A stretch of 64,000 nt of DNA. It comes from a bacterium. GTDB lineage: Bacteria > Hinthialibacterota > Hinthialibacteria > Hinthialibacterales > Hinthialibacteraceae. Positions 11,601 through 50,203 of this stretch are shown one piece after another (positions within the stretch are counted from its first letter, which is position 1; every line of letters starts with the position of its first letter). Position numbers and translations under genes: made by a program. The stretch lies in contig CAXXMV010000006.1 in NCBI GenBank assembly GCA_963662285.2, forward strand, positions 1,024,001-1,088,000, in the 5' to 3' direction. The notes beneath the pieces were generated by a model that saw nothing but the letters and a program-made list of their open reading frames with translations, had not been told where the DNA came from and made no database searches.

Positions 11601-12950
11601 CTAAAACATCATCCACATTTTGATTGGGGTGATTACTGGTTGATATTCAAACGCTCCGATGTCGATATATGAGGGAGCGCTTGATGTTGCATTGGGCGCC
11701 TCAGGCGCATCAAAACGTGAATTGCCGCTGAAATCATGATCTAATACGGCTTCTTCTCCCCATCCTGCGTCAATAGCGGGTGAACCGGAAAGCAGAGCGT
11801 AATTATTATCCGGCAGATTAACAAACATTGGATCAGCATTCTGGTTGCCGATTCCCTGATAAACAGAATCTCCTTTGATAATTGAATATCTTGCATCCAT
11901 GGTTGATCCTGGTTCCAGTTTTATAGAAGTCTGGTCATCCCGGCCCCAGATGATGGTATTGATCATCCTGGCATGAGCGGGATTCTGATGCATCCAGACG
12001 CCCCGGTCGCAATTGATGATAGTGTTGTTGATTACGGTGATATCAGCGCCGTTCTTGAATCCTATGCCGCTCTCGCAATTGATAATGACATTGTTAACTA
12101 TAATAGGATGAGCGTCTTTGTCGCCAGAAATTCCTATAGGATCGTTGCTGCCTCCCCGGCAGTTCATAACCAGGTTCCCCTCAACATAGGCGTCGCAGGT
12201 ATCAAGGTCGATGCCATCATCTTCGCTTCCCAGAAATACATTGTATCGTATGATGGGGCCAGGATTCTGTGTATCTCCTATATCTATCGCATCGCTATAG
12301 CCATAACGCTGCTCAAATGTATTGTATTCTACCAGTACGGCGCTATATGAGCCGTGTACGGCTTCGTTTTCTCCCGGTCCGAAGAGACAGCGTCTAATCA
12401 CCATGTTGGGAGAATGGTAACTCTCCGTGGCTTTAGCATTAAAATCATCCGGCCAGTCAGTCAATGTGCAACTATCTATAATTACTGAAGATGCGCATCT
12501 ATAGGCGTTTATCATACCAATCCGGTTACCTGAAGCGTGTGATCCGTGATTTACATAGCAATGCTTTAATAGTCCTGAGCCGTTTTCTTCAAAAGATATG
12601 GCGCCCCAGCGTTGTTCGCCATCTGAATCAATTTGAATAGGATGTTCAACTTCGCCGTTCATCTCTAATCGACCTAAAACAGTTATCACTACTCCTTCTT
12701 TGATCTTGATTTCTACTCCTGCAGCAACGGTTAGACTAGCATTACCAGCAATTAGAAGATCGCCATTAATAACCACTGGACCATCATTGGAATGCCATAA
12801 TTCATCTGTATCAATGACGCCGGAATGAAGATTTTGGGCATAAACTATGTTAGAAAAGAGAAATATGGATAAAAAAGCAGCAAAAAATGTTTTGTATGAT
12901 TGAAATCGGTATGAATTTTTGTTAGAATCATTAAATTTTCTAGGAATCAT
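11601..12950 (-). CDS. Secreted right-handed parallel beta-helix repeat protein
   Basis: Signal peptide (IVYA|Q), repeated DGIDLD/NNTIINC/GIGFK turns, and C-terminal DPMFV...LLSGSPAIDAG...DIGAFEY. Ends TPIKMWMMF. Confidence 0.85.
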   Translation of the reverse strand: MIPRKFNDSNKNSYRFQSYKTFFAAFLSIFLFSNIVYAQNLHSGVIDTDELWHSNDGPVVINGDLLIAGNASLTVAAGVEIKIKEGVVITVLGRLEMNGEVEHPIQIDSDGEQRWGAISFEENGSGLLKHCYVNHGSHASGNRIGMINAYRCASSVIIDSCTLTDWPDDFNAKATESYHSPNMVIRRCLFGPGENEAVHGSYSAVLVEYNTFEQRYGYSDAIDIGDTQNPGPIIRYNVFLGSEDDGIDLDTCDAYVEGNLVMNCRGGSNDPIGISGDKDAHPIIVNNVIINCESGIGFKNGADITVINNTIINCDRGVWMHQNPAHARMINTIIWGRDDQTSIKLEPGSTMDARYSIIKGDSVYQGIGNQNADPMFVNLPDNNYALLSGSPAIDAGWGEEAVLDHDFSGNSRFDAPEAPNATSSAPSYIDIGAFEYQPVITPIKMWMMF

Positions 12951-13091
12951 TTGGGTATCTTTCTCATTTTATATTGTGATGATCGGGATTAACTATATGA
13001 ATTTATCAAACATCAGATAATTTTGTCAGATCAAATTGATCTAATTATATGATTGTAGTTTTAAAGCAATGAATTAACTTGGGATAGTAAT

Positions 13092-14090
13092 ATGATTAAA
13101 ACTTCCAGAATATTGGAATGCTACCAGATAGAGTTGGTCGAGAAATTAGAAAGCCTGTTAGACGAGTTTTTCCGCGATATGATCAATAAAGGATTGAAAA
13201 GCTCTACAGCTGAGAGGCACGTGGCTAATGCAGAATTATTTCTTATTGAATATCATGCTTTTTATTTAATTGATGAAATTACCAATTTACGCAGTGAAAT
13301 GATTTATGATTTCCTGGGTCAATGGTATTTTCAGAAAGTACATCAACCGGGCAAGAAGGATTTGAATGGAATTATTGTTTCATTAAAGCGTTTTTTTTCT
13401 TTTGCATTAAAAAAGGGAATTTTACCTGAGGCAAATTGTTTAGAACTCAAGGCCGCGCTTTGCGATGATCAATATTTCACAAATAGGTTTGAGAAATATA
13501 AAAAAGACCCTGACGGCTTTATTTACCCGGAGAACCGGTCATCTTTTTTATGTAATGCAGATTCCCTTGACAGTGATGATCAAATCAAGGAATGCATTTC
13601 GGATGATATGATTAATAGTGTATTTAACGAACAAGAAAATGCCATTACCCTTGAAGAAATGATTGCCAAGTTGATTGAACGTTTCAAATCTTTTAAGCCT
13701 AAAAAAAATGTCTTATCAATATTAAAAAAAGAAATGCCCAAATTATCAAAAAAACCGACTCCATTTAATTCAGTATCCCAGGAAGAGCCTACTATCAATA
13801 CCTTAAAAGATCATTGCATGTCGTTGCATCGCGCTAATCATGTTTTTATACGATGGCTTGATAGATACAATTGTCAAATGTCTCATATCCCAACGGAAGC
13901 GATGACTGTTTGTATTGAATGCGATATGGTTTTAACCTCTCTTTTAGTGCGTTTTGATGTAGAGATGATTTCAAAAGAAGAGATAAAACTCGGGCATAAT
14001 CTTTTCGATATGATGGACAAAATGCTTTGGAACGCCCGTTTTCAGATAGCCCACATTTTAGGTCTAGACTTACGTACCCTTCATTTATAG
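13092..14090 (+). CDS. Hypothetical protein with an N-terminal integrase SAM-like (core-binding) domain and no catalytic domain
   Basis: KGLKSSTAERHVANAELFL...IYDFL...SLKRFFSFALKKG resembles Phage_int_SAM. No R-H-x-x-R-Y catalytic residues are evident. Confidence 0.5.
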   Translation: MIKTSRILECYQIELVEKLESLLDEFFRDMINKGLKSSTAERHVANAELFLIEYHAFYLIDEITNLRSEMIYDFLGQWYFQKVHQPGKKDLNGIIVSLKRFFSFALKKGILPEANCLELKAALCDDQYFTNRFEKYKKDPDGFIYPENRSSFLCNADSLDSDDQIKECISDDMINSVFNEQENAITLEEMIAKLIERFKSFKPKKNVLSILKKEMPKLSKKPTPFNSVSQEEPTINTLKDHCMSLHRANHVFIRWLDRYNCQMSHIPTEAMTVCIECDMVLTSLLVRFDVEMISKEEIKLGHNLFDMMDKMLWNARFQIAHILGLDLRTLHL

Positions 14091-14190
14091 TATCATCGCT
14101 CCATAATAAACAAATTATTATTCAATAGTAATATGATGTAAGTATTTGTTTATTAAAGTTTAAAAATCTATTAATTAAGGTCATTTATAT

Positions 14191-15450: not shown

Positions 15451-15479
15451 TAAAAAAGCGAAAAAATCACTATAAAAAA

Positions 15480-17268: not shown

Positions 17269-17685
17269 ATGTCAAATCAACTTCCTGAAAATCTGAGTAC
17301 CGCCGAATGGAAAGTCATGAAAATTGTGTGGGAGTTGCAGTCATGCGCCGCGCGTGACGTGTATTCAATCACGCAGGAAAAATTCGGCTGGCAGCCAGTC
17401 ACAACCAAGACGGTCTTACGGCGGCTGGTCGATAAGAATCATCTTAAAACAAAACAGATTGGCAATAGTTACTTGTATGAACCCATCTCAACCATGAAAG
17501 ACACCATCTGCGATGCAGCGCAAGAACTGCTGGAAGACACTCCGACGAAGATGTCGGCATCGCTGATGTTTCACATGGTGAAGAAAGGGAATTTGAGCGG
17601 TAAGGATGCCCGCGAATTGAGGGATATGTTGGATCAATACATCGAAGGGGAGAACGATAATGGTGATGATGGAAACGCTATCTAA
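17269..17685 (+). CDS. BlaI/MecI/CopY family transcriptional repressor
   Basis: LSTAEWKVMKIVW...WQPVTTKTVLRRLVDK...YLYEP. Overlaps the downstream M56 gene. Confidence 0.93.
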   Translation: MSNQLPENLSTAEWKVMKIVWELQSCAARDVYSITQEKFGWQPVTTKTVLRRLVDKNHLKTKQIGNSYLYEPISTMKDTICDAAQELLEDTPTKMSASLMFHMVKKGNLSGKDARELRDMLDQYIEGENDNGDDGNAI

Positions 17686-19759
17686 GTTTGCCGAACACTG
17701 GATGGAGTTCATGCTCTTCCGTTCGTTAGATTTCACCTTGGCATTTGGTTTGATCGGTTTGGTATGGTTTTTCATCAACCGGCGTGTCAGTTCCCAGTTT
17801 GGTTATTTGCTATTTCTACTTGTGATACTCAAACTGGCTATCCCCCCTCAATTCTCATTGCCGAATCATTTTTCCTCTTTGAACAACACACCTGCAAAAA
17901 TTGGGGCGCCGGTTAATTTCGAGGGTTCAATGATAGATGGAGCCGTGGATGAAACCCGCAGCGGAGACGCTGTGGTTACAAAGCCGGAATCCGAATCGAA
18001 GGCGACGCTGCCAGTTTCCATTTCGATTCCAACTTTGTTAATGGCGATATGGGCATTCGGTATTATATGTTTTGGCATACGCCTGTTTTGGATTGAATGG
18101 AAATCCCTTTTCATGATCCGCAATACCATCCCATTGGACCCAACATGTATGTCAATTGATTTACAAGACCTGCAAAAACAAACTGGAATAAGGCGGAAAG
18201 TGAGTTGGGTAACCGGTGACTGGATCAAAACGCCAATCGCATACGGTATATTTCATCCTGTTGTCGCGGTACCCAAGCGGATGAATGACCATCATTCCCG
18301 CCAACAAATTCGGTTCATCCTGTTACATGAATTGGCGCATATCCAACGCTGGGATAGTTTGGTTTCCTTTATGCAAAACATCACACGAGTGCTGTTTTTC
18401 TTTCACCCGCTGGTTTGGTGGGTCAACAACATCATCGATCAACAGCGGGAGTATGCCTGTGACGATGCCGCGTTGCGATGGAGCAAAGCATCACGAAAGG
18501 AGTGTGGTGAGGGTTTTTTGGGATTGGTGATGCAGGTGAATGAACTGCCCGCCTTTGCGCCCTCCGCACTCGGATTTGTCGACTACAAAACGTTCATTAG
18601 GAGAAGACTCATGAGAATATTAGATAAAACCAGAACCTTGAAACAATTATCATTTTCTTCTTTATCCTTATTATTGATATTATCCGCGTTTGTCTCACTG
18701 TTCGGCGTGCAAGCTATTGCCCAGGGACTGCAATGGACGGAGCTCACCTCCACCACTCAACCCCCTCCACGCGTAAGATTCAAGATGGTCTATGACAGTC
18801 AGCGGGATCGCATCGTCTTGCACGGCGGATATCGTGAAGATATAAACTCGAATGGAACGATAGAAAGAGTTACTCTGTCAGATACCTGGGAATACGATGG
18901 CAATGAATGGCAATTGGTATCTGAAGATGGCCCTCAAATTTTATCTCATGCTATGGCGTATGATCCCATCCGTGGTGAAACAGTCTTGTTCGGCGGTATG
19001 ATTTGCATCGGAAAACATAGTTATATCTGTATGAGAGAAACATGGCGGTGGGATGGAAGCAATTGGTACAGTACAATCGATACATCAGGACCAATTGAGA
19101 GGTCAGACGCCGTGATGGAATTCGACCCGGAATCACAAAGTTTGATCTTGTATGGTGGAGTTGACGGAGCGACATTTTTTGACGCCTGGAGTTGGGATGG
19201 CAATACCTGGACCCAGCTTTCCGAAGAGGGTCCTCCTATAATAACACATAGTATTACGTATGATGAGAATCGAAAAAAACTAGTATCATTAAATGAGGTT
19301 GGCGCATATTTTGACGGAGAAACGGAGTATATGGTTGCAGGATATACAAACGTTATATCGGAATGGAATAACAACCAATGGATTCAGATTGAAGATGGTT
19401 CTATTCAACCCCGACCAATACCGCCAAGAGCCGGTAGTAGTTTTATATATCTTCCATTTATCAAAAAGATATTGTGCTATGGTGGTGGAAACCTTAAAAT
19501 GCTACTTGCTCCTCAAGATGAAGTTCAGGATGATGACTTTTGGACCTGGGATGAGGAACGCTGGGAACAAATCGAACTCTCTCCCAAGCCCGTCACACGG
19601 ATGGGGCATGGCGGGGTGTATGACTCCAAACGTGACCGCTTTGTGATATTCGGCGGCGTCACAGCGCAAGATGGCCAAGCCTATTACTTGGAAGATATGT
19701 GGTCGCTTTCTCTTAACCAACAAAGTAGTATTGATGCCAGGTTCTGGCAGGAATATTAG
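17660..19759 (+). CDS. BlaR1-like M56 metallopeptidase fused to a C-terminal Kelch beta-propeller
   Basis: HELAHIQRWD, FFHPLVWW and REYACDD mark the M56 domain. Kelch repeats follow (MVYDSQRDRIVLHGG, MAYDPIRGETVLFGG, YDSKRDRFVIFGG; DTWEYDG). Confidence 0.92.
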   Translation: MVMMETLSKFAEHWMEFMLFRSLDFTLAFGLIGLVWFFINRRVSSQFGYLLFLLVILKLAIPPQFSLPNHFSSLNNTPAKIGAPVNFEGSMIDGAVDETRSGDAVVTKPESESKATLPVSISIPTLLMAIWAFGIICFGIRLFWIEWKSLFMIRNTIPLDPTCMSIDLQDLQKQTGIRRKVSWVTGDWIKTPIAYGIFHPVVAVPKRMNDHHSRQQIRFILLHELAHIQRWDSLVSFMQNITRVLFFFHPLVWWVNNIIDQQREYACDDAALRWSKASRKECGEGFLGLVMQVNELPAFAPSALGFVDYKTFIRRRLMRILDKTRTLKQLSFSSLSLLLILSAFVSLFGVQAIAQGLQWTELTSTTQPPPRVRFKMVYDSQRDRIVLHGGYREDINSNGTIERVTLSDTWEYDGNEWQLVSEDGPQILSHAMAYDPIRGETVLFGGMICIGKHSYICMRETWRWDGSNWYSTIDTSGPIERSDAVMEFDPESQSLILYGGVDGATFFDAWSWDGNTWTQLSEEGPPIITHSITYDENRKKLVSLNEVGAYFDGETEYMVAGYTNVISEWNNNQWIQIEDGSIQPRPIPPRAGSSFIYLPFIKKILCYGGGNLKMLLAPQDEVQDDDFWTWDEERWEQIELSPKPVTRMGHGGVYDSKRDRFVIFGGVTAQDGQAYYLEDMWSLSLNQQSSIDARFWQEY

Positions 19760-23100: not shown

Positions 23101-23232
23101 CGCAATTGCGAATTCTGCATTGCTGCCATCTTCTTCCCCGATCATCCAGATTATTTCTTCGCTGAATGTCGACATGGAATGACATGAAAAAAAGAGCACG
23201 GCGCCTAGTAAAATTCTTGTTTGGTTCGTCAT
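20119..23232 (-). CDS. Secreted glycoside hydrolase family 38-like (alpha-mannosidase-type) with an N-terminal PL4 domain III/CBM-like module
   Basis: AHVDIGYT, LYNEHTWG, YWEDGAGS and KRAE...YIVRLRE...LKPWEIAT. N-terminal IWMIGEEDGSNAEF...WDSIRL module and a signal peptide. Confidence 0.85.
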   Translation of the reverse strand: MTNQTRILLGAVLFFSCHSMSTFSEEIIWMIGEEDGSNAEFAIAKEPNAYLKTFPNDVCYRVGSSSPDTGWSGMQPGPGDSWGGSRKNKFVIEFECDPEPEGVYLLQIRLVGYHPNQPQGMFVDINGARSPIGFPSGGHMNGYLDFALGKPFQIDMPLFAKDLRRGENSIAFESMSCWLLWDSIRLVHTAEAQPDALALQSVEFESLPLFVKTKGSLKQKARLSFVTTRLLKELKTRIHMNGETFTHPFKVTALGANKRDITIPEIQQEDHVKIEILHKKDVIFTGEFPVTPSRKWTISVVPQAHVDIGYTHLQDEAMEVHRKSNDMALEFIDKYPEFVWSIESTYVMEGWIKSRAPELIEYFFNKAREGKIEVEAIYSNLLTGLLSDEESFRSLYYSKQLSKEHDFIFGSATLTDAPSHIWSLPTVLRSSGVKYLSMGINTTRAPLLRGGLYKQSPTWWEGPDGSKILAYFHDHYAGAGAIGLTDAWSADGQKGSSLSTAEQRIPDLLRSYEREDYPYDAIHIHGAYGDNRSLTEQLPITVRAWNKKYEYPKIVFTTNTEWFSSFEEKYGENLKVARGDGGPYWEDGAGSTARETTINRQNQQNALLAEMLITGLHAKGIIQEDFRKLFADIWHNIMLYNEHTWGAHNSVSQPNLPEVLEQYRIKSEFALRAQQKIEPLLNIARQHIPIDERTKPEWSLQGERLVGARYDITFDLEQGGIKNIIDKETNQELIDSQSTYLLGQLIYARNEQPPYEFSVPKFEGIENSRNGVVLYWSHELFPEIKLTLNFDDARKAIAFKYDIQKKYTTEKEGVYIAFPLAGVNPQIDYAVANAVVRAGRDWLPGSCKDWFTLQNWLRVRNDGYDALFVTYDAPLINLQDINSNKWLEELPIRNGHVFAYPMNNYWFTNYRAGQAGKYTFRFALTSSQSISNSEALQFGRNWTNAERNAVDSMISVKPGSVVISGFKRAEYEDGYIVRLREMNGQTTEAVLHAPALATIHSSFLCNGVEDVLNELSVLDNAVQINLKPWEIATILVK

Positions 23233-23285
23233 ATTGAATATCCCTAAATCGAATGTTTTTTAGTTCCTCGTAAAAATCAGGTACC

Positions 23286-23361
23286 GTAAGGTGGGCGTGC
23301 TTTTTGATCCACCAATCGATTAGTAATTATCGGTGGATCATAAAAAGCAACCCCACTCTAC
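23286..23361. repeat. GTAG-type long hairpin repeat, copy 2
   Basis: gtaaggtgggcgtgctttttgatccacc-loop-ggtggatcataaaaagcaaccccactctac. Confidence 0.85.
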
Positions 23362-23365
23362 TTGG

Positions 23366-24520: not shown

Positions 24521-24559
24521 GAAATTCGTGAAAACTCACTTTTTTGATTAATAAATCAA

Positions 24560-25675: not shown

Positions 25676-25736
25676 TTTTTATACAATTCTCCTTAACGTT
25701 GTTATATCTAAGTTGTTTATAATTAAATATATACAA

Positions 25737-26276
25737 TCATGGCCCCCAGATATCAATATCTCCCAGGCTGATCAAACCGTTGGTCATATCGTAGGGGAAG
25801 CCATAATCCAGCACTTTGTTAGGACCATAGGAACGGATATGCCAGGCTAGCCCGCCTGGAACCGATAAATTAATATTAGCCGATGTCTGACGGTCGCCCA
25901 GAGAGGAGTGATAGTCGGACCTGAACCAGGCTTCTTCTGATTCACGTTCGACATAATGGAAATACATATAGCGGTTAGCTCCATCAGTAGATGTAGCGAA
26001 AATGTCATAAGGTAATGTCGTGATATATGCAAAGGGCGAAGTTAACCTTTGTAATCTAGGGTAAGCCCAGTTGCTGGGAGGATAATGATTGTTGTCAAGC
26101 CGGTATTGCTCCAGCGCATTGCCCTGCGCTTTGATGTCGCCATAGATTCGAGCCACTTTGGCGCGGGTTTGAGCGTTGAGAAAGTTAGGAACAGCGATGG
26201 CGGCCAGAATCCCGATGATGGCGACCACAATCAGAAGTTCGATCAAGGTAAAAGATTTTTTCTTAGCGTGAGTCAT
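25737..26276 (-). CDS. Prepilin-type N-terminal cleavage/methylation (GspG-like pseudopilin) protein
   Basis: KKS|FTLIELLIVVAIIGILAAIAVPNFL, ALEQYRLDNNHYP, and C-terminal SYGPN...PYDMTNGLISLGDI. Confidence 0.92.
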   Translation of the reverse strand: MTHAKKKSFTLIELLIVVAIIGILAAIAVPNFLNAQTRAKVARIYGDIKAQGNALEQYRLDNNHYPPSNWAYPRLQRLTSPFAYITTLPYDIFATSTDGANRYMYFHYVERESEEAWFRSDYHSSLGDRQTSANINLSVPGGLAWHIRSYGPNKVLDYGFPYDMTNGLISLGDIDIWGP

Positions 26277-39354: not shown

Positions 39355-42300
39355 TTACTCGTAAGTGAGTATCAGTTTCCAACTTTCAAGAACAGGATTT
39401 CCTTCTCCTAACCAGTCTTCAAGCATAAGCGTCCATTCACCTAGTGATCTTTCGGACGGTACATCTTCGTCGAGAATATAAATCCACATACCTTGTTTCG
39501 TTCCAGGTACTGCATCGAAGAAGTCGTACCATTCACCCGATGGCAATACCAGATTAATAATTATTTCTTCCCATTCCGAACACGTGACTGTAATTTCCGC
39601 TCTGAAATGCGTAAGAACACGATCAGTTGTACAGTTAATCACGCGTGTTAGTGTATCGAGTTCAAATGTATTTAAATCAAGAGATGGAATGGGTACGCCC
39701 GCCTGGTCTTCGAGTATCTCCGATTGGGGGCCTGTTGAGGGCGGCGGAGTGGGAGTCGGAGTCCAGGGTTTAGGTGTTGGCGTCCTTGTCGGGATTCTTG
39801 TTGGCGTAGCAAGTTTGGTCGGGGTAGGAGTGTTCGGTTTTGGTATCAGGATACTGGTTGGCGTTGGGTATAACATTGATGGAGAATCGCTAAACATAGA
39901 AGCGGAGAACGAAGCGCCCGGCTCCATGATAAAGGCTTCCATACGATCAATCAGTACAAGGCTGCTGCCTCCCGCGCCTCCAGCGACCTGGATAAAGGGC
40001 GTGATCCACTCACAGGCATCGGGCTGATACACCACACAAATACGCCCTTCTCGATCAACGTAACTGGATGAATTAGCGAGTTGAGTCAAAGCAAGGGAAC
40101 CATCAACGTTAATTTGTTTGAGAACGTCTCCCTTAAGAGCTCCCATAAAGATAGATGCATTAGGTGAATTTGCCCGTAGAGTCGTCCGGATTAGCGCAGA
40201 GCATCCTTTGGAGTTTATCGCTGTCTCTGCTAATAGGTAGATTATTTCATTATTGTTAACCAGAAGGCCTATTCCTTTTCCATCGTTCGAGGAGGGAATC
40301 TGGTTTGCTGAAATAGAATACTGTGGAATAACTGCTCCTGGTGCAGCGCCGCCAAATCCGCCGGGAATCTCTACCCAGGAGTTTGAGGCCAAGGTCGATC
40401 CATTGAATTCATAAACGACTGACGGTTGTGGTTGGTTTCCTGAAAGGCTCCCTCCTGATATTGGATTCGGTTGGTTACTGAACATGGAAGAGCAGAACGA
40501 ATAATCGCTATGCATCACAAAAACTTCCACTCGATCAATCATCACATTGGTTGTACCCTCCGTTTTTCCAGCGACCTGGATAAAGGGCGTAATCGACCCA
40601 CCGGAATCGGGTTGATAAACTACGCAAATCTGACCTTCTTTATTAACGAAATTGGATGCGCTTGCACATTGATCATATGCAATCGAACCATCCATTTGAC
40701 CTTTCAGGACGCCCAAAACAACTGATGCGTCGGGCGCGTTAGCGCGCAAAGTCATCCGGATAAGGGCGGGTAGGCCGCCTGCGTCTATAGTCGTTTGCGT
40801 TAATAAAAATGCGACTTCGTTCGGCTTAACAAGCACGGCAAGCCCTTTATTGTCCACTGATGATGGAATCTGATCTCCGGTGATGGGGAAGCATGGGAAA
40901 ATCGATCCCGACGCGGCGCTACCGAAACCGCCGGGAATCTCTCCCCATCCGTTGGCTTCCAAGGTTGCCTGGTTGAACTCAAAAACGGCCTTCGGCTGAG
41001 GGGCTTCTCCAGGTATGACAGCTTCTTTTGGCGTTGGCGTCATTGTATGCGTCGGCGTGGGGCGTTTCGTTGGTGTGCGTGTCGGAGTGAAGGTGCGCGT
41101 CGGAGTGAATGTGCGTGTCGGTGTGGGGGTTGAAGGCTCGACATTTGTTATGGGCATTGGAACGATCTTTAGATTGTCAAACTCCAATTGTTGAGCATAT
41201 AGTTGGATTCCTACATATCCTTTTTGGTATTCGTGATCGACGCCAGAGATAGTCAATCCATCATCCCGTGTAAACTTGAATAAACCGTCTTTGACTTCTA
41301 ACGTCAAATGCATTCTTGTCTGTTCGGGATATGGTATATAGTCATCCTTCAAAAATGAGATCAATTGGTACCAGGGTGTATTATCACTGAATCGTTTGGA
41401 AATCTTTAAGAAGGGTCCGTCGACCCCATCAAGAGAATTCTGCGGCCAAATATCATTGATCATTATTACGCGGTAGTGACGGTCTGTGCCTGTATAAGCC
41501 CAAACTAGTCCAATCCCATCATCGTCATTGGCAACGGTATCAATCTCAAGCCGGAAATTCGTAAACTGCTGTTTTTTATAGATGAGAAATGTCCCCATAA
41601 GGCATGTGTCGTCAACATTACCCCAAATATTAGAACCTTGATAAAGTGCATAGCCGTCAAGCCCCAATTGGCTCTTACGGATCTCCCATGTAGGTGGTTC
41701 CGAAAAACCCAACGATACATCAGTGATAACCTGCCAACCATTAAGGCTTCGATCCTCAAAATTGAAAATGATCGATTCTTCCCCGGATGGAAGTGGTGTG
41801 GGTGTCTTAGTCGGCGTGAATGTCCGCGTCGGTGTTGGAGGCGCAGGATCTGAGTCAGATTCGATCAGTACACGGAATGTATAATTCCAAGGCTTGTTTT
41901 TATCTGCAGGGGCGGTATATCCAAAATTCTCCAAATACAACAAAATTTTGTAAGTTCCGGCAGAGAGTTGAAAGCGTCCGGTGGCCTTCTCATTCGGATT
42001 GGCAATGACTTTTGATGAATTGAGTGATGGAAGATAGGCGACTTCTGAGTTATCATCTGCGTCGAAGATCGTTCCACCAATAGCCGTACCTCCTTCCGTG
42101 TGTCCTGTCAGGGTGGTATCGATCCAACTGTCCGAGTTGAGTTTCAGCGTGTACCAGTCTCTCATATCCATTTGTGCGGGATCGACGGAATAATCTTTAT
42201 ACCCCAAGTGCCCATGGTTGCCTCCGCTACTGATATTCGGGGCGCCCGCTGCATTATCAGTGGATGCGGGGTCATCCGGTATCGGGTCCTGCTTGTAGTT

Positions 42301-42792
42301 GGTTCGCAAGGTGTATTCCCATTTGCCGTAGTGACAACCCTGGTAGTAAAAGATGTATACACAAATATAGTACTGCCCGGCCTTCAGGCGGATTTCTTTC
42401 TCTCTGATTTCGCCAGCTCTGGCATCAACAGCGCCTAATGTATTATCAGAGAAATATTTACCGCTTTGGCCCCAGATCGAAAATCCTATCCAACACCCGT
42501 TCTCTGTATAGGCGGAGAGAGTGGTTGTGAGCCAACCATCCTCCGGTATATTGAATACATACCAATCGCGCTTATCATCAATTGGGGGGGTGCTATACTC
42601 GTTAACTTCCAAATCGTCGCTAAATGATGAGCCAACATTCATAGTATTGGCAAAAGCTCGATCATCATCCGCTTCCGCCTGTCCGAAAGTTTGCATGCCG
42701 CCCATAAGAATGATGATTGCCGTAAGCGTTGAAACGAAAATAAATCTCGAGGTTATCCAGAAAAAAAGAACCGTTCTCATGCGAAAATTCAT
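39355..42792 (-). CDS. Large secreted mosaic protein: two PPC-like domains, a lectin/TSP-C-like beta-sandwich, Pro/Thr linkers, a tandem duplicated ~175-aa domain and a C-terminal proprotein-convertase P-like domain
   Basis: DKRDWYVF/DMRDWYTL PPC-like repeats; DDDGIGLVW...GYVGIQL...FDNLKI; TPTRTF repeats; twice FEFN..TL..N.W.EIPGGFG...ITPFIQVAG...IDR.E.F; terminal LVLPSG...GEWTLMLED...LESWKLIL. Confidence 0.75.
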   Translation of the reverse strand: MNFRMRTVLFFWITSRFIFVSTLTAIIILMGGMQTFGQAEADDDRAFANTMNVGSSFSDDLEVNEYSTPPIDDKRDWYVFNIPEDGWLTTTLSAYTENGCWIGFSIWGQSGKYFSDNTLGAVDARAGEIREKEIRLKAGQYYICVYIFYYQGCHYGKWEYTLRTNYKQDPIPDDPASTDNAAGAPNISSGGNHGHLGYKDYSVDPAQMDMRDWYTLKLNSDSWIDTTLTGHTEGGTAIGGTIFDADDNSEVAYLPSLNSSKVIANPNEKATGRFQLSAGTYKILLYLENFGYTAPADKNKPWNYTFRVLIESDSDPAPPTPTRTFTPTKTPTPLPSGEESIIFNFEDRSLNGWQVITDVSLGFSEPPTWEIRKSQLGLDGYALYQGSNIWGNVDDTCLMGTFLIYKKQQFTNFRLEIDTVANDDDGIGLVWAYTGTDRHYRVIMINDIWPQNSLDGVDGPFLKISKRFSDNTPWYQLISFLKDDYIPYPEQTRMHLTLEVKDGLFKFTRDDGLTISGVDHEYQKGYVGIQLYAQQLEFDNLKIVPMPITNVEPSTPTPTRTFTPTRTFTPTRTPTKRPTPTHTMTPTPKEAVIPGEAPQPKAVFEFNQATLEANGWGEIPGGFGSAASGSIFPCFPITGDQIPSSVDNKGLAVLVKPNEVAFLLTQTTIDAGGLPALIRMTLRANAPDASVVLGVLKGQMDGSIAYDQCASASNFVNKEGQICVVYQPDSGGSITPFIQVAGKTEGTTNVMIDRVEVFVMHSDYSFCSSMFSNQPNPISGGSLSGNQPQPSVVYEFNGSTLASNSWVEIPGGFGGAAPGAVIPQYSISANQIPSSNDGKGIGLLVNNNEIIYLLAETAINSKGCSALIRTTLRANSPNASIFMGALKGDVLKQINVDGSLALTQLANSSSYVDREGRICVVYQPDACEWITPFIQVAGGAGGSSLVLIDRMEAFIMEPGASFSASMFSDSPSMLYPTPTSILIPKPNTPTPTKLATPTRIPTRTPTPKPWTPTPTPPPSTGPQSEILEDQAGVPIPSLDLNTFELDTLTRVINCTTDRVLTHFRAEITVTCSEWEEIIINLVLPSGEWYDFFDAVPGTKQGMWIYILDEDVPSERSLGEWTLMLEDWLGEGNPVLESWKLILTYE

Positions 42793-43057: not shown

Positions 43058-44563
43058 TCATTCGGCCAGGCTGTTAGGTAAGACTATTTGGTAATGATCC
43101 AGCAAAGTTCCTTCGGCCAGGTATAATCCTAAGATTGCTTTTCTAAGGTCAATTTGAGCATCGCTTTCATCCAGTTGAGATGCGATTAAATCCCGCTGCG
43201 TTGTAAGAACTAAAAGATTGGTTGATTTACCGACGCGGAATTTTTCCAATTCAGCTTGATATTTCGCTTTCTGAAGATGAGTGGCTCTTTGCGTGGCGGA
43301 AATTTGCCGTTTGGCGCGAATCAGTTCGGCGGAGGCCATACGAACATCAAGTTCAACCAATTGTTTGAAATTATCATAAGCGATTTGGGCTTTTTCCTTG
43401 TTATTAATAACGCGGGCATGACGGGCTTTAGCGGCGCGGTTTCCCAAAGGCATGGAGAATGAAAATCCCGTACGGGCGTCATAATTCTCTTCTATGATTT
43501 TGCTAAAGGAATTATTAAATGAATCTGCATATCCGGTTTTGCCCAGGGTAATAAAAAAATCGAGTTGCGGCAACAAACCGTTTTTGGTTCTTACAAGTTG
43601 AATATCCTGTGTTTCTATTTCAATGCGAGCCTGATATAGGTCAGGCCGAGTCGAACAAGCGACGGCAATATGTTTTTCTATGGAGCCTTCATCGAATTCA
43701 TCGATGTCGGGTGAATTCGTCAACTGGACATCTAAATCCCAGAAATCATTCAAGGGAGGATTAATGGATTGAAGAAGACGCAAGGTCGATTTATGTATAG
43801 CGCTCTGAGCGTCGATGACTGATTTTTCCCGGAGAGCCACTTCACCTTCAGCAGCAGCCAGATCAATTTCTGCAAGTTCGCCAACTTCTATACGGTCTTT
43901 GGTCTCCTGAAGTTGTTTTTCGGCAAGTTCCATGGAAGTGGTATGAATGCGTAATTCTTCTTTAGCTGAAAGAAGGTTCCAATAATTTTCTTCTACCTGG
44001 GCGATGAGAGCCAGGATAAATCCCCGTAATTCGTACAGGGATAATTCAAGGTTTTTTTCCGCAAGATGAACTCCCACCAGATTGGTATTTTCACCGAATC
44101 CCTTTAAGGCCGGTATTATAATATCGGCGCCTAAACGGGAAGAAAACAACTTGGTGTAAACATTCGATTCGCGTTCTGTGGTTGATAATCCAAACTCCAT
44201 TTCCACGCCAATGGGTAAGCGTTTTGATACGCCGGTAGAGGAGTCGTACTGCCGGTTGGTCACAGACCGGAATTCTCCAACGCCAGAAGATCGTTGTCCA
44301 TCGGAGTCAGAAAAAGTGAAACCTGTATTAAGGGATGAATCAAAAGAAGCCTGTTCTTCGCTGACAAAAGTACGGGCCGTCTCCAGTCCATATTTTTCTA
44401 CCGATAAAGAGCGGTTGTTTTCCAGAGCCATCACAATACTCTCCCGTACAGTGAGTTGCAGTGTGGAGGATGAGGTCGGCGCATCGGCGTCCGTCCAGGC
44501 GAGTTCAAGGATGCTTAACAGTAAACAGAGAACAATTATAAGATGGATAGGTTTGTTATTCAT
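43058..44563 (-). CDS. TolC family outer membrane efflux protein
   Basis: LTVRESIVMALENN, YWNLL, LLPQLDF, PLGNRAA and EKFRVGKST. Third gene of the efflux operon. Confidence 0.92.
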   Translation of the reverse strand: MNNKPIHLIIVLCLLLSILELAWTDADAPTSSSTLQLTVRESIVMALENNRSLSVEKYGLETARTFVSEEQASFDSSLNTGFTFSDSDGQRSSGVGEFRSVTNRQYDSSTGVSKRLPIGVEMEFGLSTTERESNVYTKLFSSRLGADIIIPALKGFGENTNLVGVHLAEKNLELSLYELRGFILALIAQVEENYWNLLSAKEELRIHTTSMELAEKQLQETKDRIEVGELAEIDLAAAEGEVALREKSVIDAQSAIHKSTLRLLQSINPPLNDFWDLDVQLTNSPDIDEFDEGSIEKHIAVACSTRPDLYQARIEIETQDIQLVRTKNGLLPQLDFFITLGKTGYADSFNNSFSKIIEENYDARTGFSFSMPLGNRAAKARHARVINNKEKAQIAYDNFKQLVELDVRMASAELIRAKRQISATQRATHLQKAKYQAELEKFRVGKSTNLLVLTTQRDLIASQLDESDAQIDLRKAILGLYLAEGTLLDHYQIVLPNSLAE

Positions 44564-44594
44564 TTTTCCTTGCCAGGTATCAAAGTAGTGAAAT

Positions 44595-47500
44595 TTATTC
44601 AGGTTGTAAGTTTATATCCTTTTTTCGTTCGAACATTAAATAGAAGATGGGAATAATAACTAATGTAATGATACTCGAACTGAGCAATCCCCCAATTACT
44701 ACCCGCGCCATTGGCGCCTGCACTTCGCCGCCTTCACCCAAGCCCAGCGCCAAAGGAAGCAATCCTACTGCGGTAGTTAATGTGGTCATCAGAATGGGGC
44801 GTAACCGGCGGCGTGCGCTTTCTTCTATGGCTTCCAGAATAGGCATACCATCCCGGCGTCGTAACAGGTTTGTGTAATCCACCAGGATAATTGCATTATT
44901 TACCACAATCCCGACCAGCATAATACAGCCGATAAACGATTGCAGGTTGAAGGTGGTATCGGTAATGATAAGCGTTATAACAACGCCGATAGTAGCAAGT
45001 GGAATAGCGAACATGACCACAAAAGGATCTATCAGCGATTCGAATTGCGATGCCATGACCATATAAACCAATAAAATAGCCAGGCAAAATCCGAATAATA
45101 GTTCCTTAAAGGACTTTTGTTGTTCTTCGTAATCGCCGCTGGGTTGAATCTCAAAATCAGCCGGTTTGGGAATGGCGTCAATTCGCTTTTTTATATCACC
45201 AATCACCGAACCTAAATCCCGGTCAGCTATATTGCCGGACACGGTTATAGTTCTTTGTTGATCCTCGCGTTCAATCTGAACCGGACCTTCACGTCTTTCG
45301 ATATTGACCACATTTTTGAGAACGATGCTTTTGCCTTGCGCATTGGCGACCGTCATATCGAGTACATCCGCAATCGCAAGCCGGTCGGTCTCCTTCAATC
45401 GAACCAGGATTTTGTATTCATCCCCGCCTTCACGAAACATCGTCGAACTGGTTCCGGAAAGGCTGGTTTCAATGGCGCTTGCAATCCGTGAGACCGAAAG
45501 CCCTAATGCAGAAGCTTTGGCGCGGTCAATGCGAACTATTTCTTCCGGTTGACCTTCTTCACGGCTGATACGAACATCCGTGATGCCTTCCACTTGCTCC
45601 ATCTCATCTTTTACCCTTAAGGCCAATTGTCTCGCTATATCCAAGTCATATCCCCTGACTTGAACTTCCGCCGCTTCTTCTCCTCCAGCAATCATTCGCA
45701 ACAGGAATAGGCCCTGGCCTTCACGCACGCGAATCACGATACCGGGAATATGTTCTAATAATGGACGTAAATCCTGGCATACTTTCGCACTGGATCGAAA
45801 ACGTTGACCGACTGGAACCAATGTTGCGCGCACCTCGCCGACATGTCCTCCTGAACCGCCTCTACCACTGGCGCCAACGCGGGTGTATATTACGGTTGCT
45901 TCGGGTATGGCTTCTCGGACGATTTTCTCTATTTCCTGGAATGTTGCATCAACCACCTCAATCCGCGTCCCGACCGCCATTTCTCCGCTTACCCGAACCT
46001 CCGATTCATCGGCTTTAGGCATCAATTCCACACCGACTTTACCGGTCATCCAGATACTTCCACCCAAGAGGATAAGCACCAGAAGAATTACTATATAACG
46101 AAAGCGAATGGCTGTATGCAGAAAAATAATGTATTCGCGTTCCAGAAAAGACATGAATTTATTGTTGTGGTTTTGAGCGGTTTTCTTCTGAATTTTAAGA
46201 AAGCGTGATGACAAGACAGGGATAAGAGTAAGCGCAACCACCAGCGAACAGAATAACGCAAAAACCACTACCACCGCCAATTGCCTGAAGGTGACGCCAG
46301 ACATTCCTCTGACGAACAGAACTGGTAAAAAAACGACGATAGTCGTCAGAGTACTGGCGAAGATCGCAGTTGATACTTCTTCCGTCCCCAGTAGCGCTGC
46401 ATTGAACTTTTTCTTCCCGCTCTCCAGGTGACGGTAAATATTTTCCAGTACGACGATGGCGCTATCAACCAGCATCCCCACTCCAAGCGCCAGTCCCCCA
46501 AAGGTCATGATATTTAAGGTAAAACCGCAAAAATACATCAACGCAAATGTGGCCATGATCGAGATGGGGATGGCAACGAAGATCACAAATGTACTGCGGA
46601 TATTCCGTAAAAATAAATAGAGAATCACAATTGACAAAAGCGCTCCATAAAAAGCGGCGTTTCTGACATTGCCAATCGCCCGCTTAATATATAGCGAACT
46701 GTCCAGAGTCGGGAAAACATGTAATTGAGGAAAATCTTCATTAATGCGATCAATTTCAGCAAGAGCGGCTTCTGCAACTTGAACGGTATTGCTGCCGGAT
46801 TGTTTATTTATCGCCATTCTCAAAACAGGTACTCCGCCTGAGCGGTAAATGTATGTGATCTCTTCATAAGAATCAGTGACCGTTCCAATATCTTTCAACA
46901 GAATAGGAACAGCATCGCGCATCTGAACAACTGTGTTTTTAATTTCGTCCAGGGTTTGATATTCACCTTCGGTGCGAACCTGCGATTCGAGATACCCCTC
47001 ATCCACTTTTCCGGCGGGTAGATTAATATTTTCCATACGCAAGGCATTCAAAACCGTATCCAGGGACATATCAAGGGAGGTTAATTTATGGCTATCCAAG
47101 TCAACATGAATTTCTCTTCGTAATCCACCGCGAACATCAACCGCAGCGACGCCGGGGATGCGTTCCAGACGGGATTTCACTTGATGCTCGACTACATCGC
47201 GTAATTCAACAGGGTCTAATTTGCCGGAAACGCCAAGATAGAGCACTGGAAATGAGGATAAATCGAATTTGTAAATTCGAGGGGAATCAGAATCTTCCGG
47301 CAGATGATCGCGGATTCTATCCACACGCGTTCTAACATCATTAGCAGCATCATCAATATCTATGCCCCAGACGAAACTTACTCGAACCCGGCTATTGCCT
47401 TCAGAAGAAGTCGAAATTATTTTTTCCACTCCCTGAATTGAACTTACAGCTTCTTCGACTGGCCGGGTAATCAGTTGCTCCATCTCTTTTGGACCAACGT

Positions 47501-47657
47501 TGGCGTATTCTGTGGCGACAGTAATACTAGGCCAGGTAATATCAGGCATTAAATCAATAGGTAAACGCATGAAGGAGATGATTCCAAACAGAATCACCAT
47601 GATAAAAAACATGAAAGTTGTTATGGGACGATTGACAGCGAAATGAGAAATTTTCAT
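44595..47657 (-). CDS. RND efflux transporter permease (AcrB/AcrD/AcrF family)
   Basis: LPIDLMPDI, GMLVDSAIVVLENI, GIVVNNAIILVD and RLRPILMTTLTT. Confidence 0.96.
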   Translation of the reverse strand: MKISHFAVNRPITTFMFFIMVILFGIISFMRLPIDLMPDITWPSITVATEYANVGPKEMEQLITRPVEEAVSSIQGVEKIISTSSEGNSRVRVSFVWGIDIDDAANDVRTRVDRIRDHLPEDSDSPRIYKFDLSSFPVLYLGVSGKLDPVELRDVVEHQVKSRLERIPGVAAVDVRGGLRREIHVDLDSHKLTSLDMSLDTVLNALRMENINLPAGKVDEGYLESQVRTEGEYQTLDEIKNTVVQMRDAVPILLKDIGTVTDSYEEITYIYRSGGVPVLRMAINKQSGSNTVQVAEAALAEIDRINEDFPQLHVFPTLDSSLYIKRAIGNVRNAAFYGALLSIVILYLFLRNIRSTFVIFVAIPISIMATFALMYFCGFTLNIMTFGGLALGVGMLVDSAIVVLENIYRHLESGKKKFNAALLGTEEVSTAIFASTLTTIVVFLPVLFVRGMSGVTFRQLAVVVVFALFCSLVVALTLIPVLSSRFLKIQKKTAQNHNNKFMSFLEREYIIFLHTAIRFRYIVILLVLILLGGSIWMTGKVGVELMPKADESEVRVSGEMAVGTRIEVVDATFQEIEKIVREAIPEATVIYTRVGASGRGGSGGHVGEVRATLVPVGQRFRSSAKVCQDLRPLLEHIPGIVIRVREGQGLFLLRMIAGGEEAAEVQVRGYDLDIARQLALRVKDEMEQVEGITDVRISREEGQPEEIVRIDRAKASALGLSVSRIASAIETSLSGTSSTMFREGGDEYKILVRLKETDRLAIADVLDMTVANAQGKSIVLKNVVNIERREGPVQIEREDQQRTITVSGNIADRDLGSVIGDIKKRIDAIPKPADFEIQPSGDYEEQQKSFKELLFGFCLAILLVYMVMASQFESLIDPFVVMFAIPLATIGVVITLIITDTTFNLQSFIGCIMLVGIVVNNAIILVDYTNLLRRRDGMPILEAIEESARRRLRPILMTTLTTAVGLLPLALGLGEGGEVQAPMARVVIGGLLSSSIITLVIIPIFYLMFERKKDINLQPE

Positions 47658-47667
47658 CCAGTTTTTC

Positions 47668-48813
47668 CTATTTATCTTTGGATGTATTAACTACAATGGA
47701 ATCTCCATCACTTAAAAGGTGTTGCCCCATAACAATAACTTGCTCACAGGGCTGTTCGCTGGTTATTTCAGTTAATTGGGGATTAGAAATTCCTTTGGTG
47801 ATTGGAATAAATCTGGTGGTGGTTTGGTTGGCATCCGGAACAAAGACGCCCAGCTGGGTTTCTCTTTTAACAATGGCATGGCTAGGCGCCAGCATGACAT
47901 TTTTACGGATGCCATATTGAATTCGAACTCTTGCGAACATACCAGGCTTGAGAAGCAGGTGTGAGTTTTCAAATTCGATCTCTGTCTCTGCGGTTCTGGT
48001 GTCAGGGTCGAGAATAGGAGCGATGCGGGTCACTTCTCCTTCGAAAATCTGATTGGGATAGGCATCCACCTTTAGAATTGCTTTCAAACCAATCAGAACT
48101 TTGGCGTAATCACGCTCAACCACGCTGATAACCGTTTTTACCACAGACATATTTGCTAAAGAGACAATGGGAGTTGATGCAGACATCATGGCGCCTTCAT
48201 CAACATAACGTTTTCCGACAAATCCGGTGATTGGAGAATTGATTTGGGTATAGGAGAGCCTGGTTTGCGCCGCTCGAAGGGCAGCTTCCTGTTGAGTGAT
48301 GCTGGCTTCCGCCACTCTTTTACGTCCCAGAAATTTGGCCACTTCCGATTCAGAGGTCTCCAGCTCGGTTTCTGCGGCCACTTTTCTTTGGCGGAGAGTT
48401 TTGATGCGTTCCAGCTCGTTTTGAGCAGTAGCAACCGAGGTATTGATCTCTTCAAGCGCGGCTCTTGCCACTAATAATCTGGCTTTGGCCTCATCAACTT
48501 CATTTTTGATCTCTTCATCATCCAAAGTCGCCAATAATTGGCCTTGCTCAACTTTATCGCCGAGATCAACATAAATCTTATTGACCAGACCGGAGATTTT
48601 AGGAGACACGGAAACTTCGGCATTTCCCGCTAAGGCGCCGGTAAATTCCGCTGTATCTTCAATGTCTCCAATGGTAATATTTTCGCATATTACAGCAATT
48701 GGCGTTTTGCCCCGTTTTAACGATTTTTCTTTAGATGATGCGAATAAAATGAGTTTCCATATTACAAGAGCCGCTAAAACTAGAACAAATGATATCAGAA
48801 TAATTTTTCTCAT
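47668..48813 (-). CDS. RND efflux periplasmic adaptor (membrane fusion protein)
   Basis: VSPKISG..V..GDKV..GQLLA, coiled hairpin, SPITGFV, DPDTRT and LKPGMFA. Confidence 0.94.
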   Translation of the reverse strand: MRKIILISFVLVLAALVIWKLILFASSKEKSLKRGKTPIAVICENITIGDIEDTAEFTGALAGNAEVSVSPKISGLVNKIYVDLGDKVEQGQLLATLDDEEIKNEVDEAKARLLVARAALEEINTSVATAQNELERIKTLRQRKVAAETELETSESEVAKFLGRKRVAEASITQQEAALRAAQTRLSYTQINSPITGFVGKRYVDEGAMMSASTPIVSLANMSVVKTVISVVERDYAKVLIGLKAILKVDAYPNQIFEGEVTRIAPILDPDTRTAETEIEFENSHLLLKPGMFARVRIQYGIRKNVMLAPSHAIVKRETQLGVFVPDANQTTTRFIPITKGISNPQLTEITSEQPCEQVIVMGQHLLSDGDSIVVNTSKDK

Positions 48814-49426
48814 GATTTTCCGGATAATATAGAATTTAATTGTTTCATATCAGAATGAAAAGGATCAAAATATTAGTCATAAATGTTCAAGCAATTGTTC
48901 CTTTAAACCTTTTATTCAAAGATATTTGAATATTCTTCTATAGAGTGATTTTCATAATAATGTTCTGATTCGTGATCCGAAAATCCAGAAAAGATTGGTT
49001 TTTCAAAGAGCAAACATATTAATAAACGAATATAATTTTGATAATCGCTCTAGAATTTAATGCCACCTGAATAATAAGACTGAGCTGACCTCCAGGTCTA
49101 GTACTCCAGAAGGTTCTTTTTAAGTAAAATCAGGGTGTATAGTTTTATGTTTATTTATGGGTCGGTTTTAAGAGATATTCTTTTAATTACCTTAGGTTAA
49201 GCGCTAAAATATGCATTATTTTGTTTTTGATTAATGGCTTCCCTTTACATTAGGAAAAAAATATGCCCAAATAGATAATATAAATCACTATATTAATATA
49301 TTCTGGTAGATATCATAAATCATCCATAATTATTAATTATTAAATCCTCCCTTTGTAGAGGGGAATCTGCGTATTTTTTTATTACTTAAACCTCAATGAG
49401 GAATCTTAAAAATAGTAAAGGGGAAT

Positions 49427-50203
49427 ATGTCTATGAAAAAGATGTTAGGTCTAGTAGTTCTATGTGCTTGTATGCTTCTTTTAGTTACAGGAGTTGAGGC
49501 GCAAGTGGTCAAAGAGATTAATTTCTCTGCAGCTGAAGGTTATGTGGACGGATTGCTGATTGGACAGCCAGCCAATAGTGATTCAAAGTGGACTGCTGCC
49601 AGCGAAGCCCAGGGTGTGGATACTTTTATGGTAGAGAACGAAGCCATGCTCGTTCATCCTGATGGAACAGGAACGATTTGGCTTAATATCAGTTTCCCGG
49701 TCCAACATACCGGTTTTCTTACCGCTACCTGGGATTGGCAATATTTTGGACCACCGGAAAAGCATATGGATTTAGGTTTTACAATCGGCGATTTAGCCAA
49801 TTACCTGGTCGATGGCGATCCATACACCGTGTTTAACGAACAAAGCGCCATCACCCGCATGGGCGATCTTATCGATGCTCGAAACGGCGATTGGGTCGGC
49901 GGCGGCAGTTGGGAATCAGCGAATGGCGTTGAATACCGGGATGGAGTATTGGTTCATATGCGCATGGTCGTTGACATCCAAGAATGGTATTTTGACATCT
50001 ACGCACAAAGAGATGGTGAAGAGGAAGCTTTGGTGGCGGATGATTTTCTTTTCCGTCGCGCAACTTCAGGAGAAACCGATGGAGTGAATGGGATAACCTT
50101 GTGGTTGAATGGCGGCGATCCTGAAACCAGCGTTGTTCTGGATAACATTCTCCTGGTCGGTCCTGAACCAATCGCGTCTGTTGATAGTTGGGATTTATTT
50201 TAA
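49427..50203 (+). CDS. Secreted acidic beta-sandwich-like hypothetical protein
   Basis: Sec signal (VEA|Q), beta-rich acidic mature region ending LDNILL..PEPIASVDSWDLF. RBS aagggg upstream. Confidence 0.8.
   Translation: MSMKKMLGLVVLCACMLLLVTGVEAQVVKEINFSAAEGYVDGLLIGQPANSDSKWTAASEAQGVDTFMVENEAMLVHPDGTGTIWLNISFPVQHTGFLTATWDWQYFGPPEKHMDLGFTIGDLANYLVDGDPYTVFNEQSAITRMGDLIDARNGDWVGGGSWESANGVEYRDGVLVHMRMVVDIQEWYFDIYAQRDGEEEALVADDFLFRRATSGETDGVNGITLWLNGGDPETSVVLDNILLVGPEPIASVDSWDLF

Follow-up and report, generated by a model that had tools for sequence, protein, structure and literature searches.

A C-terminal tryptophan tail on exported proteins across the phylum Hinthialibacterota, a candidate sorting or docking label

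Why would unrelated exported proteins of one bacterium end in nearly the same ten residues? The question is raised by a stretch of 64,000 nucleotides from a Hinthialibacterota genome (assembly GCA_963662285.2, contig CAXXMV010000006.1; C6:1024001-1088000 in the numbering used here), which is called the window below. An earlier note on this DNA had pointed to three non-homologous proteins encoded in it, a beta-helix protein (P0001), a BlaR1-Kelch membrane protein (P0002) and a beta-sandwich protein (P0003), and had proposed that all three share one short tail around a tryptophan close to the C-terminus. Two of them do, P0001 and P0003, and so do many other proteins of the genome. P0002 has only the W..Y pattern in common with them.

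The assembly measures 7.29 Mb in 8 contigs and is 92.5% complete. Genes were called with a simple program of our own, a dicodon log-likelihood model followed by greedy removal of overlaps, which yields 5476 genes covering 88% of the genome. The gene calls are crude; the C-terminus of a protein is independent of the start codon chosen. Tails were scored with a position-specific scoring matrix (PSSM) of ten residues, likewise our own and iterated, at a threshold of 12 bits.

The consensus that emerges is T-x-[VI]-x-[DNE]-W-x-[LIM]-[YFH]-COOH. It is carried by 170 of the 5476 proteins, 147 of which have it exactly at the terminus, while 23 have one or two extra residues after it, mostly E, D, N or Q. 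For the exactly terminal matches of 12 bits or more, about 0.05 would be expected from the internal rate, where 147 are seen. The last residue of these 147 tails is Y or F in 117 cases, position -3 is mostly S, E or M, and position -5 mostly D, N or E.

The same excess appears with a much simpler definition. A total of 120 proteins end in W..[FY], against 6.7 to 7.2 expected from composition or from the internal rate. A logo of these 120 ends has T at -9 (79 of 120), V or I at -7 (108), D, N or E at -5 (80), W at -4, S, E or M at -3, L or I at -2 (91) and Y or F at -1, with a G/P/E-rich stretch upstream of the motif. The invariance of the W at -4 is built into the definition of the seed set. 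Spacing is fixed. The consensus first proposed, with a gap of two to four residues before the tryptophan, is therefore replaced by T -9, V/I -7, D/N/E -5, W -4, L/I/M -2 and Y/F/H -1.

Matches of 14 bits or more were also sorted by their distance from the end of the protein. At distance 0 there are 147, at one residue 16, at two residues 1, and more than 50 residues away 10. The null rate gives an estimate of about 19 internal matches by chance. Internal copies are thus not enriched, and the motif is strictly terminal. The excess of the terminal tryptophan tail is real and far above chance.

Is it the protein or the DNA that is repeated? Synonymous codons at the T, V, L and Y of the tail match genome usage, and pairwise identity between tails is 0.39 at third codon positions and 0.54 at first and second positions. 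This means that the repeat is selected at the protein level, and is not a DNA element. The count of 170 is a lower bound, since degenerate variants, with F or Y in place of W or with one trailing R, E or K, are seen among paralogues counted as untagged.

The tail is concentrated on proteins that look exported, as the earlier note had expected. By a crude hydrophobicity heuristic of our own, 151 of the 170 tagged proteins have a signal-peptide-like start, versus 1493 among the remaining 5306 (odds ratio 20, Fisher p 1e-59). The 19 carriers negative by this heuristic include several whose N-termini are visibly hydrophobic. A lipobox-like motif is present in only 4 of 170 carriers, and most of them therefore look soluble. 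A later membrane-like segment is found in 6 of the 147 carriers with an exact tail and in none of the 23 with an extended one. An RR-type motif occurs in 4 of 170, one of them convincing; motif counts do not decide between the twin-arginine (Tat) and Sec routes.

The carriers are diverse. With the tail removed, they fall into 88 single-linkage BLAST components, 69 of which are singletons. The largest component holds 53 proteins, linked through common repeats. Pfam and NCBIfam models were run on a random 60 out of the 163 carriers of at most 1300 residues. The Pfam families in this sample include WD40, FG-GAP, S8 peptidase, the beta-lactamase family, CotH with lamin-tail, CBM9 and LamG, and further Peripla_BP_6, GDSL and carboxyl-esterases, tyrosine phosphatase with leucine-rich repeats, BNR, CAP and S9. 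No Pfam family was found for 24 of the 60. There are also paralogue pairs that align up to the tail, with one copy ending just before it. The tail is portable between unrelated folds.

Another shared ending was seen in this genome. Many of its large secreted proteins end in ...GFR[VL]..., which may be the end of an FGE/SUMF1-type domain.

In the window itself 2 of the 44 called genes are tagged, and no other gene there scores positive. The first is P0001 (11601..12950, minus strand), an exported right-handed beta-helix protein of 449 residues with matches to Pfam Beta_helix and NosD and an AlphaFold2 model at a mean confidence (pLDDT) of 92. Its N-terminus is hydrophobic (...FFAAFLSIFLFSNIVYA, then Q). 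Its tag is ...ITPIKMWMMF-COOH (11604..11633, minus), with T at -9, I at -7, W at -4, M at -2 and F at -1, and scores 18.3 bits on the genome PSSM.

Just upstream of this tag, at residues 373-437 (11640..11834, minus), lies a choice-of-anchor Q domain (NCBIfam NF041518; 38.2 bits with a cut-off of 25, and found at the same place in the genome search). It ends 12 residues before the C-terminus. The name choice-of-anchor is given to domains that stand just before C-terminal sorting signals which differ from lineage to lineage, and the tail of P0001 directly follows such a domain. The genome has three copies of the Q domain; the tag comes directly after two of them, and the third copy is internal. 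A distant homologue of P0001 (P0062; 26% identity, 85% coverage) bears the tail domain PF18962 of the type IX secretion system (T9SS).

The second tagged protein of the window is P0003 (49427..50203, plus strand), an exported beta-sandwich protein of 258 residues (pLDDT 84) that matches no Pfam or NCBIfam family. It ends in ...IASVDSWDLF-COOH (50171..50200, plus; V at -7, W at -4, L at -2, F at -1; 14.9 bits), after a GPEP linker. Among 19 aligned relatives, 16 stop exactly at the end of the tag, and the linker before it varies in length; 1 has extra residues after it. The remaining 2 have a C-terminal module of some 60-90 residues in place of the tag. Counted over loci from species genomes, 12 of 17 are tag-ended, and two Verrucomicrobiota homologues bear that module. 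A weak relative from Phycisphaeraceae ends in a PEP-CTERM-like tail. The replacement module of the Verrucomicrobiota-type homologues (P0017 and P0022) has the core ...GTLQ.A...GP[WY]..V..., mostly ends in ...FYR..., and has no family assigned. Directly upstream of P0003 lies an ordinary resistance-nodulation-division (RND) efflux operon (43058-48813, minus), with an outer-membrane factor, an AcrB-type pump and a HlyD-type adaptor.

It had been suggested that the tail follows the last folded domain, and the AlphaFold2 models of both window carriers are in line with this: in each, the predicted fold ends before the tail. The P0001 model is confident to about residue 440, and its last nine residues (mean pLDDT 58) form no strand of the beta-helix. 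In the P0003 model the last strand is 235-245, residues 246-258 are without strand, and residues 250-258 have a mean pLDDT of 44. Judged by these models, the tail is exposed outside the fold in both proteins.

The third protein of the original set is different. P0002 (17660..19759, plus) combines Pfam Peptidase_M56, as in BlaR1, with Kelch. Its end, ...SSIDARFWQEY, scores -13.6 bits and has W..Y alone in common with the tag; P0002 is not a canonical member. The three C-termini had been read correctly in the earlier note, except that P0002 has three serines there (...SLNQQSSIDARFWQEY). The closest orthologue ends in ...SSIDAKLWQMY and a 33%-identical paralogue in another genome in ...LWTLY. A paralogue in the same genome is without the W..Y end, which is thus kept in 3 of the 4 family members seen. 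The end of P0002 may be a relaxed relative of the tag, placed on a periplasmic domain that is anchored in the inner membrane. If so, the reader of the tail acts in the periplasm, and docking gains likelihood relative to pure export. The sensor domain of P0002 is a Kelch propeller and not a penicillin-binding domain. A gene for 138 residues overlaps the start of the P0002 gene (the two span 17269-19759, plus), a pairing that recalls BlaI-BlaR1.

How widely is the tail distributed? The search of the genomes used a strict DNA pattern that encodes T-x-V-x-x-W-x-[LIM...]-Y and then TAA or TGA, with the reversed pattern as control. In its own genome the strict pattern has 28 matches and the control 0. 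Of the 35 phylum genomes 33 have matches, and all 18 of high quality are among these. A looser pattern brings out the tail in the remaining two, 77% and 84% complete, with 5 matches against 1 for the control in the first and 8 against 0 in the second. The second (G028, family f6 of the phylum) has the variant [VI]-x-x-W-R-[LV]-[YF], with arginine at -3 in 7 of its 8 looser-pattern matches.

Outside the phylum the picture is one of background. Of 401 genomes that are at least 90% complete, all 23 from the phylum have between 2 and 28 strict matches. Among the 378 others, 7 have a single match and none has more, and the reversed control has matches in 13 of these outside genomes. Three Verrucomicrobiota genomes and one Phycisphaeraceae genome that hold homologues of the cargo have 0 strict matches. 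The proposal of a lineage-specific tag is borne out by this. The earlier note had also spoken of similar endings in related candidate phyla; none came up in the genomes searched.

The labels of homologues point to the name of the lineage. A homologue 75% identical to P0003 is found in the metagenome-assembled genome SURF_12, and a homologue of P0001 is labelled Candidatus Hinthialibacter. One source places SURF_12 in the OLB16 lineage (PMC10066038), and another equates OLB16 with Ca. Hinthialibacterota (PMC9324843). The tag is specific to this one lineage, OLB16/Hinthialibacterota. The words 'secretion', 'C-terminal' and 'sorting' are absent from the main text of the paper that founded the phylum (PMC9324843), and no published description of the tag was found in the literature, supplements aside.

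Portable C-terminal tags have precedents. Several bacterial sorting pathways were discovered through them. To our knowledge, the known C-terminal tags on Sec-exported cargo are all either tripartite signals cut by a sortase-like enzyme, or folded domains. The tripartite signals (LPXTG with sortase, PEP-CTERM with exosortase, GlyGly-CTERM with rhombosortase) resemble the present tail in being portable, C-terminal, restricted to lineages, attached to unrelated exported proteins and placed after choice-of-anchor domains. They differ in layout. Here W-x-L-Y closes the protein, a hydrophobic stretch does not follow, and the tail lacks both a membrane helix and a basic cluster; nothing therefore suggests cleavage of the sortase type. 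In the 92.5%-complete genome, exosortase (PF09721) has no match at E 0.01 or better and sortase (PF04203) has no match. For GlyGly-CTERM, the tail lacks the tripartite architecture and matches no NCBIfam model; rhombosortase itself was not searched for.

The C-terminal domain of T9SS cargo (TIGR04183/PF18962) also marks Sec-exported proteins for passage of the outer membrane, and in the homologue of P0001 it even occupies the same position. It is however a folded domain of about 70-100 residues, where the present tail is a decapeptide. TIGR04183 has no match in the genome, and none of the 60 sampled carriers matches TIGR04183/PF18962; the genes of the T9SS machinery were not searched for. More generally, NCBIfam sorting-signal models match none of the 60 carriers, and none of 22 isolated tails of 40 residues.

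Other likenesses are more partial. Ghigo and Wandersman reportedly described, in 1994, a motif at the extreme C-terminus of proteases and lipases of the type I secretion system (T1SS), acidic and then hydrophobic, which recalls [DNE]-W-x-[LI]-[YF] at the very end of the protein. T1SS substrates have no signal peptide and leave straight from the cytoplasm, whereas 151 of 170 carriers are signal-peptide-like by our crude heuristic. The beta-signal of outer membrane proteins (OMPs) is read by BAM, and OMP C-termini are read by the PDZ domain of DegS. It shares the terminal aromatic residue, but positions -3 and -5 are hydrophobic there and polar here, and the carriers are soluble folds (beta-sandwich and beta-helix models, enzyme and binding domains in Pfam) and not barrels.

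A cell-wall binding WxL domain in Lactobacillales is said to have been described by Brinster in 2007. It too has W-x-L near the C-terminus of surface proteins, with non-covalent attachment. It spans some 150-200 residues with two WxL motifs, in monoderm bacteria, unlike the ten residues here, where conservation starts only from -9 or -10. No WxL match (PF13731) was found in the 60 sampled carriers. The peroxisomal signal PTS1 (-SKL, read by the TPR domain of PEX5) and KDEL are very short uncleaved C-terminal addresses read by a receptor. Domain of life, compartments and sequence all differ, and this is an analogy only.

The closest working analogue is the signal of TcpF and CofJ, cargo of type IVb pilus systems. 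A terminal peptide of TcpF, with key aromatic residues, binds the minor pilin TcpB (PMC9565799). As with the present tail, a short flexible terminal peptide with decisive aromatic residues sits on a soluble Sec-exported protein; here the tail lies outside the modelled fold, at low pLDDT, with Y, F or H at -1. There, the peptide is read non-covalently by a pilin-class protein (TcpB or CofB) of a secretin-bearing type IV filament machine, and the cargo gene adjoins pilin genes, as do 25 of the 170 tagged genes here. Unlike the present tail, the TcpF/CofJ signal lies at the N-terminus, and each such system has a single cargo. The present tail is C-terminal, on about 170 cargos, and its link to pilins is a genomic association.

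No known sorting signal fits. The tail is short and has no membrane helix, and no exosortase, sortase or T9SS tail domain was found in the genome; together this points to an undescribed receptor for sorting or docking. The earlier note had read the tail as a sorting tag on exported proteins, and had said that this would fail if the motif were no more frequent among signal-peptide proteins, if the tail were an integral strand of each fold, or, as far as novelty goes, if it matched a defined signal. All of this was checked, none of it refuted the interpretation, and the interpretation is supported.

On balance the tail is somewhat more likely than not to be a label for sorting or docking after export, to which a receptor would bind without a covalent link, and by which cargo would be delivered across the outer membrane or to the cell surface. 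The signal peptide would bring the carrier to the periplasm. A periplasmic receptor would then bind the flexible, exposed C-terminal decapeptide, probably as an extended strand in a groove, and would in this way send the carrier through the outer membrane or to the surface of the cell.

As to the route, the leading candidate within this explanation is one of the type II secretion system (T2SS)-like pseudopilin-secretin machines of the genome, a tentative choice. A pseudopilin might then receive the tail, in much the way that TcpB receives the terminal peptide of TcpF. In its fullest form, the tail would be a linear and transferable secretion signal that loads some 170 periplasmic cargos on the pseudopilins, or on another pseudopilin-secretin part, of a T2SS-class machine throughout the phylum. 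That full form is doubtful.

The link to pseudopilins was first suggested in the earlier note, and it has gained modest statistical support. The GspG-like prepilins, a family of 109 genes, are the family most enriched among neighbours of tagged genes. Such a prepilin is the immediate neighbour of 25 of the 170 tagged genes, where permutation gives a mean of 6.7 (standard deviation 2.5, maximum 15 in 500). For comparison, it lies next to 73 of 1492 other genes that are signal-peptide-like; among untagged paralogues of that kind the figure is 4 of 90 (Fisher p 0.012). In most of the pairs both genes point the same way, and the junction between them is short or overlapping. A conserved example (C6:1705046-1706733) is a pilin gene with the gene for a tagged cargo of 347 residues behind it. 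This cargo has orthologues in 20 of the 35 genomes from the phylum, and 20 of 20 complete orthologues retain the tail. At family level, 10 of 15 loci have the pilin upstream; of the five that do not show it, two run into the end of a contig. A complex prediction for this pair (cargo 22-347 with GspG-like 26-202, on alignments of our own) scored 0.00 in two runs, and no inference is drawn from it.

The genome encodes 8 secretin genes, lying in seven regions with 100 genes, of which 63 were scanned. The regions include three T2SS-like clusters, a Tad locus, a locus like that of type IV pili, twin small secretins and a fusion of a secretin with tetratricopeptide repeats (TPR). The fusion was considered as the reader and then dropped, since its TPR part has a strong relative in a tag-free genome outside the phylum (G069); this part is found in 34 of the 35 phylum genomes and in that one outside genome. 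The fusion protein (C8:420422-423595) has 1057 residues with an N-terminal TPR array, and its gene lies beside those of a PilM/PilN fusion and a cohesin-domain protein. In the T2SS-like cluster at C1:558001-574000 the secretin is split, with N-domains and pore on separate genes, and the one at C6:870001-888000 has a secretin of 975 residues with six Secretin_N repeats. Phylogenetic profiling for a reader inside the phylum has no natural negative genome to work with, all 35 being positive.

Several observations weigh against a sorting label, or against the pseudopilin route in particular. The signal-peptide heuristic over-calls, flagging 28% of the other proteins, and the whole gene set stems from a crude caller. 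Some cargo families, such as Peripla_BP_6 and AmpH-like proteins, are usually periplasmic. Within the family of P0001, W..[FYH] with at most two further residues ends only 20 of 42 proteins, though the tryptophan column is at least 90% conserved. If the membrane-anchored P0002 is a relaxed member, the tail is not purely an export signal. The one or two extra residues in 23 of 170 tails suggest that a free carboxylate may not be read in a fixed register. As for the pilins, 85% of tagged genes have no pilin neighbour, and the seven secretin regions, with their 100 genes, hold no tagged gene. Tag-adjacent pilins do not gather in one part of the family tree (25 changes for 25 positives, where shuffling gives a mean of 22.6), and no pilin subfamily dedicated to tagged cargo was seen. 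Large pilin-like expansions are also known from Planctomycetes-Verrucomicrobia-Chlamydiae (PVC) phyla that lack the tag. Neighbour enrichment brought up no other plausible reader, as the next families, WD40-like and BNR-like, resemble cargo.

Cargo might also be held in place and go no further. The tail would then only dock. It would tether enzymes and binding proteins to a scaffold, to a protein of the outer membrane or to a glycan of the envelope, at the surface or still in the periplasm, by the logic of cohesin and dockerin or of the WxL domain, and would not drive export. Much of the evidence suits this: the cargo is rich in carbohydrate-binding and degradative modules, the aromatics W and Y are typical of glycan and peptide-groove contacts, extra residues at the end are tolerated, a folded module replaces the tail in Verrucomicrobiota homologues, and the BlaR1-Kelch family, anchored in the inner membrane, keeps W..Y in three of the four members seen. 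However, ten residues are small for stable glycan binding, and the enriched neighbours yield no repeated receptor domain or scaffold. Docking alone is a rather unlikely explanation. A periplasmic PDZ protease, like Prc/Ctp or DegS, could instead read the tail for turnover, maturation or the sensing of envelope stress. PDZ matches occur in about 8 of the encoded proteins, DegS is activated by aromatic peptides from C-termini, Prc is directed to non-polar C-termini, and a BlaR1-type sensor protease itself bears a W..Y end. This is nevertheless improbable. PDZ proteases are universal and the tag is confined to one phylum; the conserved footprint reaches to -9, where a PDZ ligand usually takes 4-6 residues; and residues after the terminal aromatic are tolerated in those same 23 tails. 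For a degradation tag it would also be odd to sit on some 3% of the proteome, mostly enzymes and binding modules, and to be conserved between orthologues.

It is harder still to see the tail as a part of its carriers, a latch, an oligomerisation strand or a folding aid that needs no external reader. At least 88 sequence groups with no relation to one another share the decapeptide. On two different folds it is modelled as unpacked and at low confidence, it is dispensable for the folding of paralogues, and it follows a linker whose length varies within one family. The alternating pattern of the motif would suit a beta-strand, and strand exchange between subunits is invisible to models of monomers; even so, such a structural role is very improbable. 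That leaves an artefact of chance, composition, a translated DNA repeat or terminator, or erroneous gene calls. The pattern was after all picked post hoc from a single window, and with about 7 W..[FY] ends expected by chance genome-wide, the BlaR1-Kelch protein may be one of them. Set against this are the numbers given above (147 exact terminal matches with 0.05 expected), codon usage that is that of the genome at large, an end of the protein that no choice of start codon can shift, and conservation across 35 genomes with reversed-pattern controls near zero. The chance that the tail is an artefact is negligible.

The tail, ten residues with no membrane helix, marks about 3% of the proteome and is kept throughout an uncultured, polymer-degrading phylum. 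If it is indeed the sorting or docking label favoured here, the list of tagged proteins would be a list of the probable surface and secreted proteins of the phylum, and the peptide a handle for fishing out the receptor. Should that receptor belong to a pseudopilin-secretin machine, exporters of this class would have in the tag a linear signal, which is rare for them. How T2SS-class machines recognise their substrates is a long-standing problem, which the tail would make directly testable with a peptide.

The window also holds a member of the prepilin family, one of the 109 paralogues (25737..26276, minus; Pfam N_methyl and a weak T2SSG match), with no tagged neighbour. It is the first gene of an operon (20119-26276, minus) whose further products are sialidase-like (BNR_2), FG-GAP and GH38 proteins, the last with a CBM-like domain. 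The operon has no tagged gene.

Elsewhere in the window, a protein of 1144 residues with a signal-peptide-like start and no Pfam family is encoded at 39355-42792 (minus). The flagellar hook-associated proteins at 57568-63333 (plus) are unusually long, with 1006 residues for the FlgK-like and 909 for the flagellin/FlgL-like protein.

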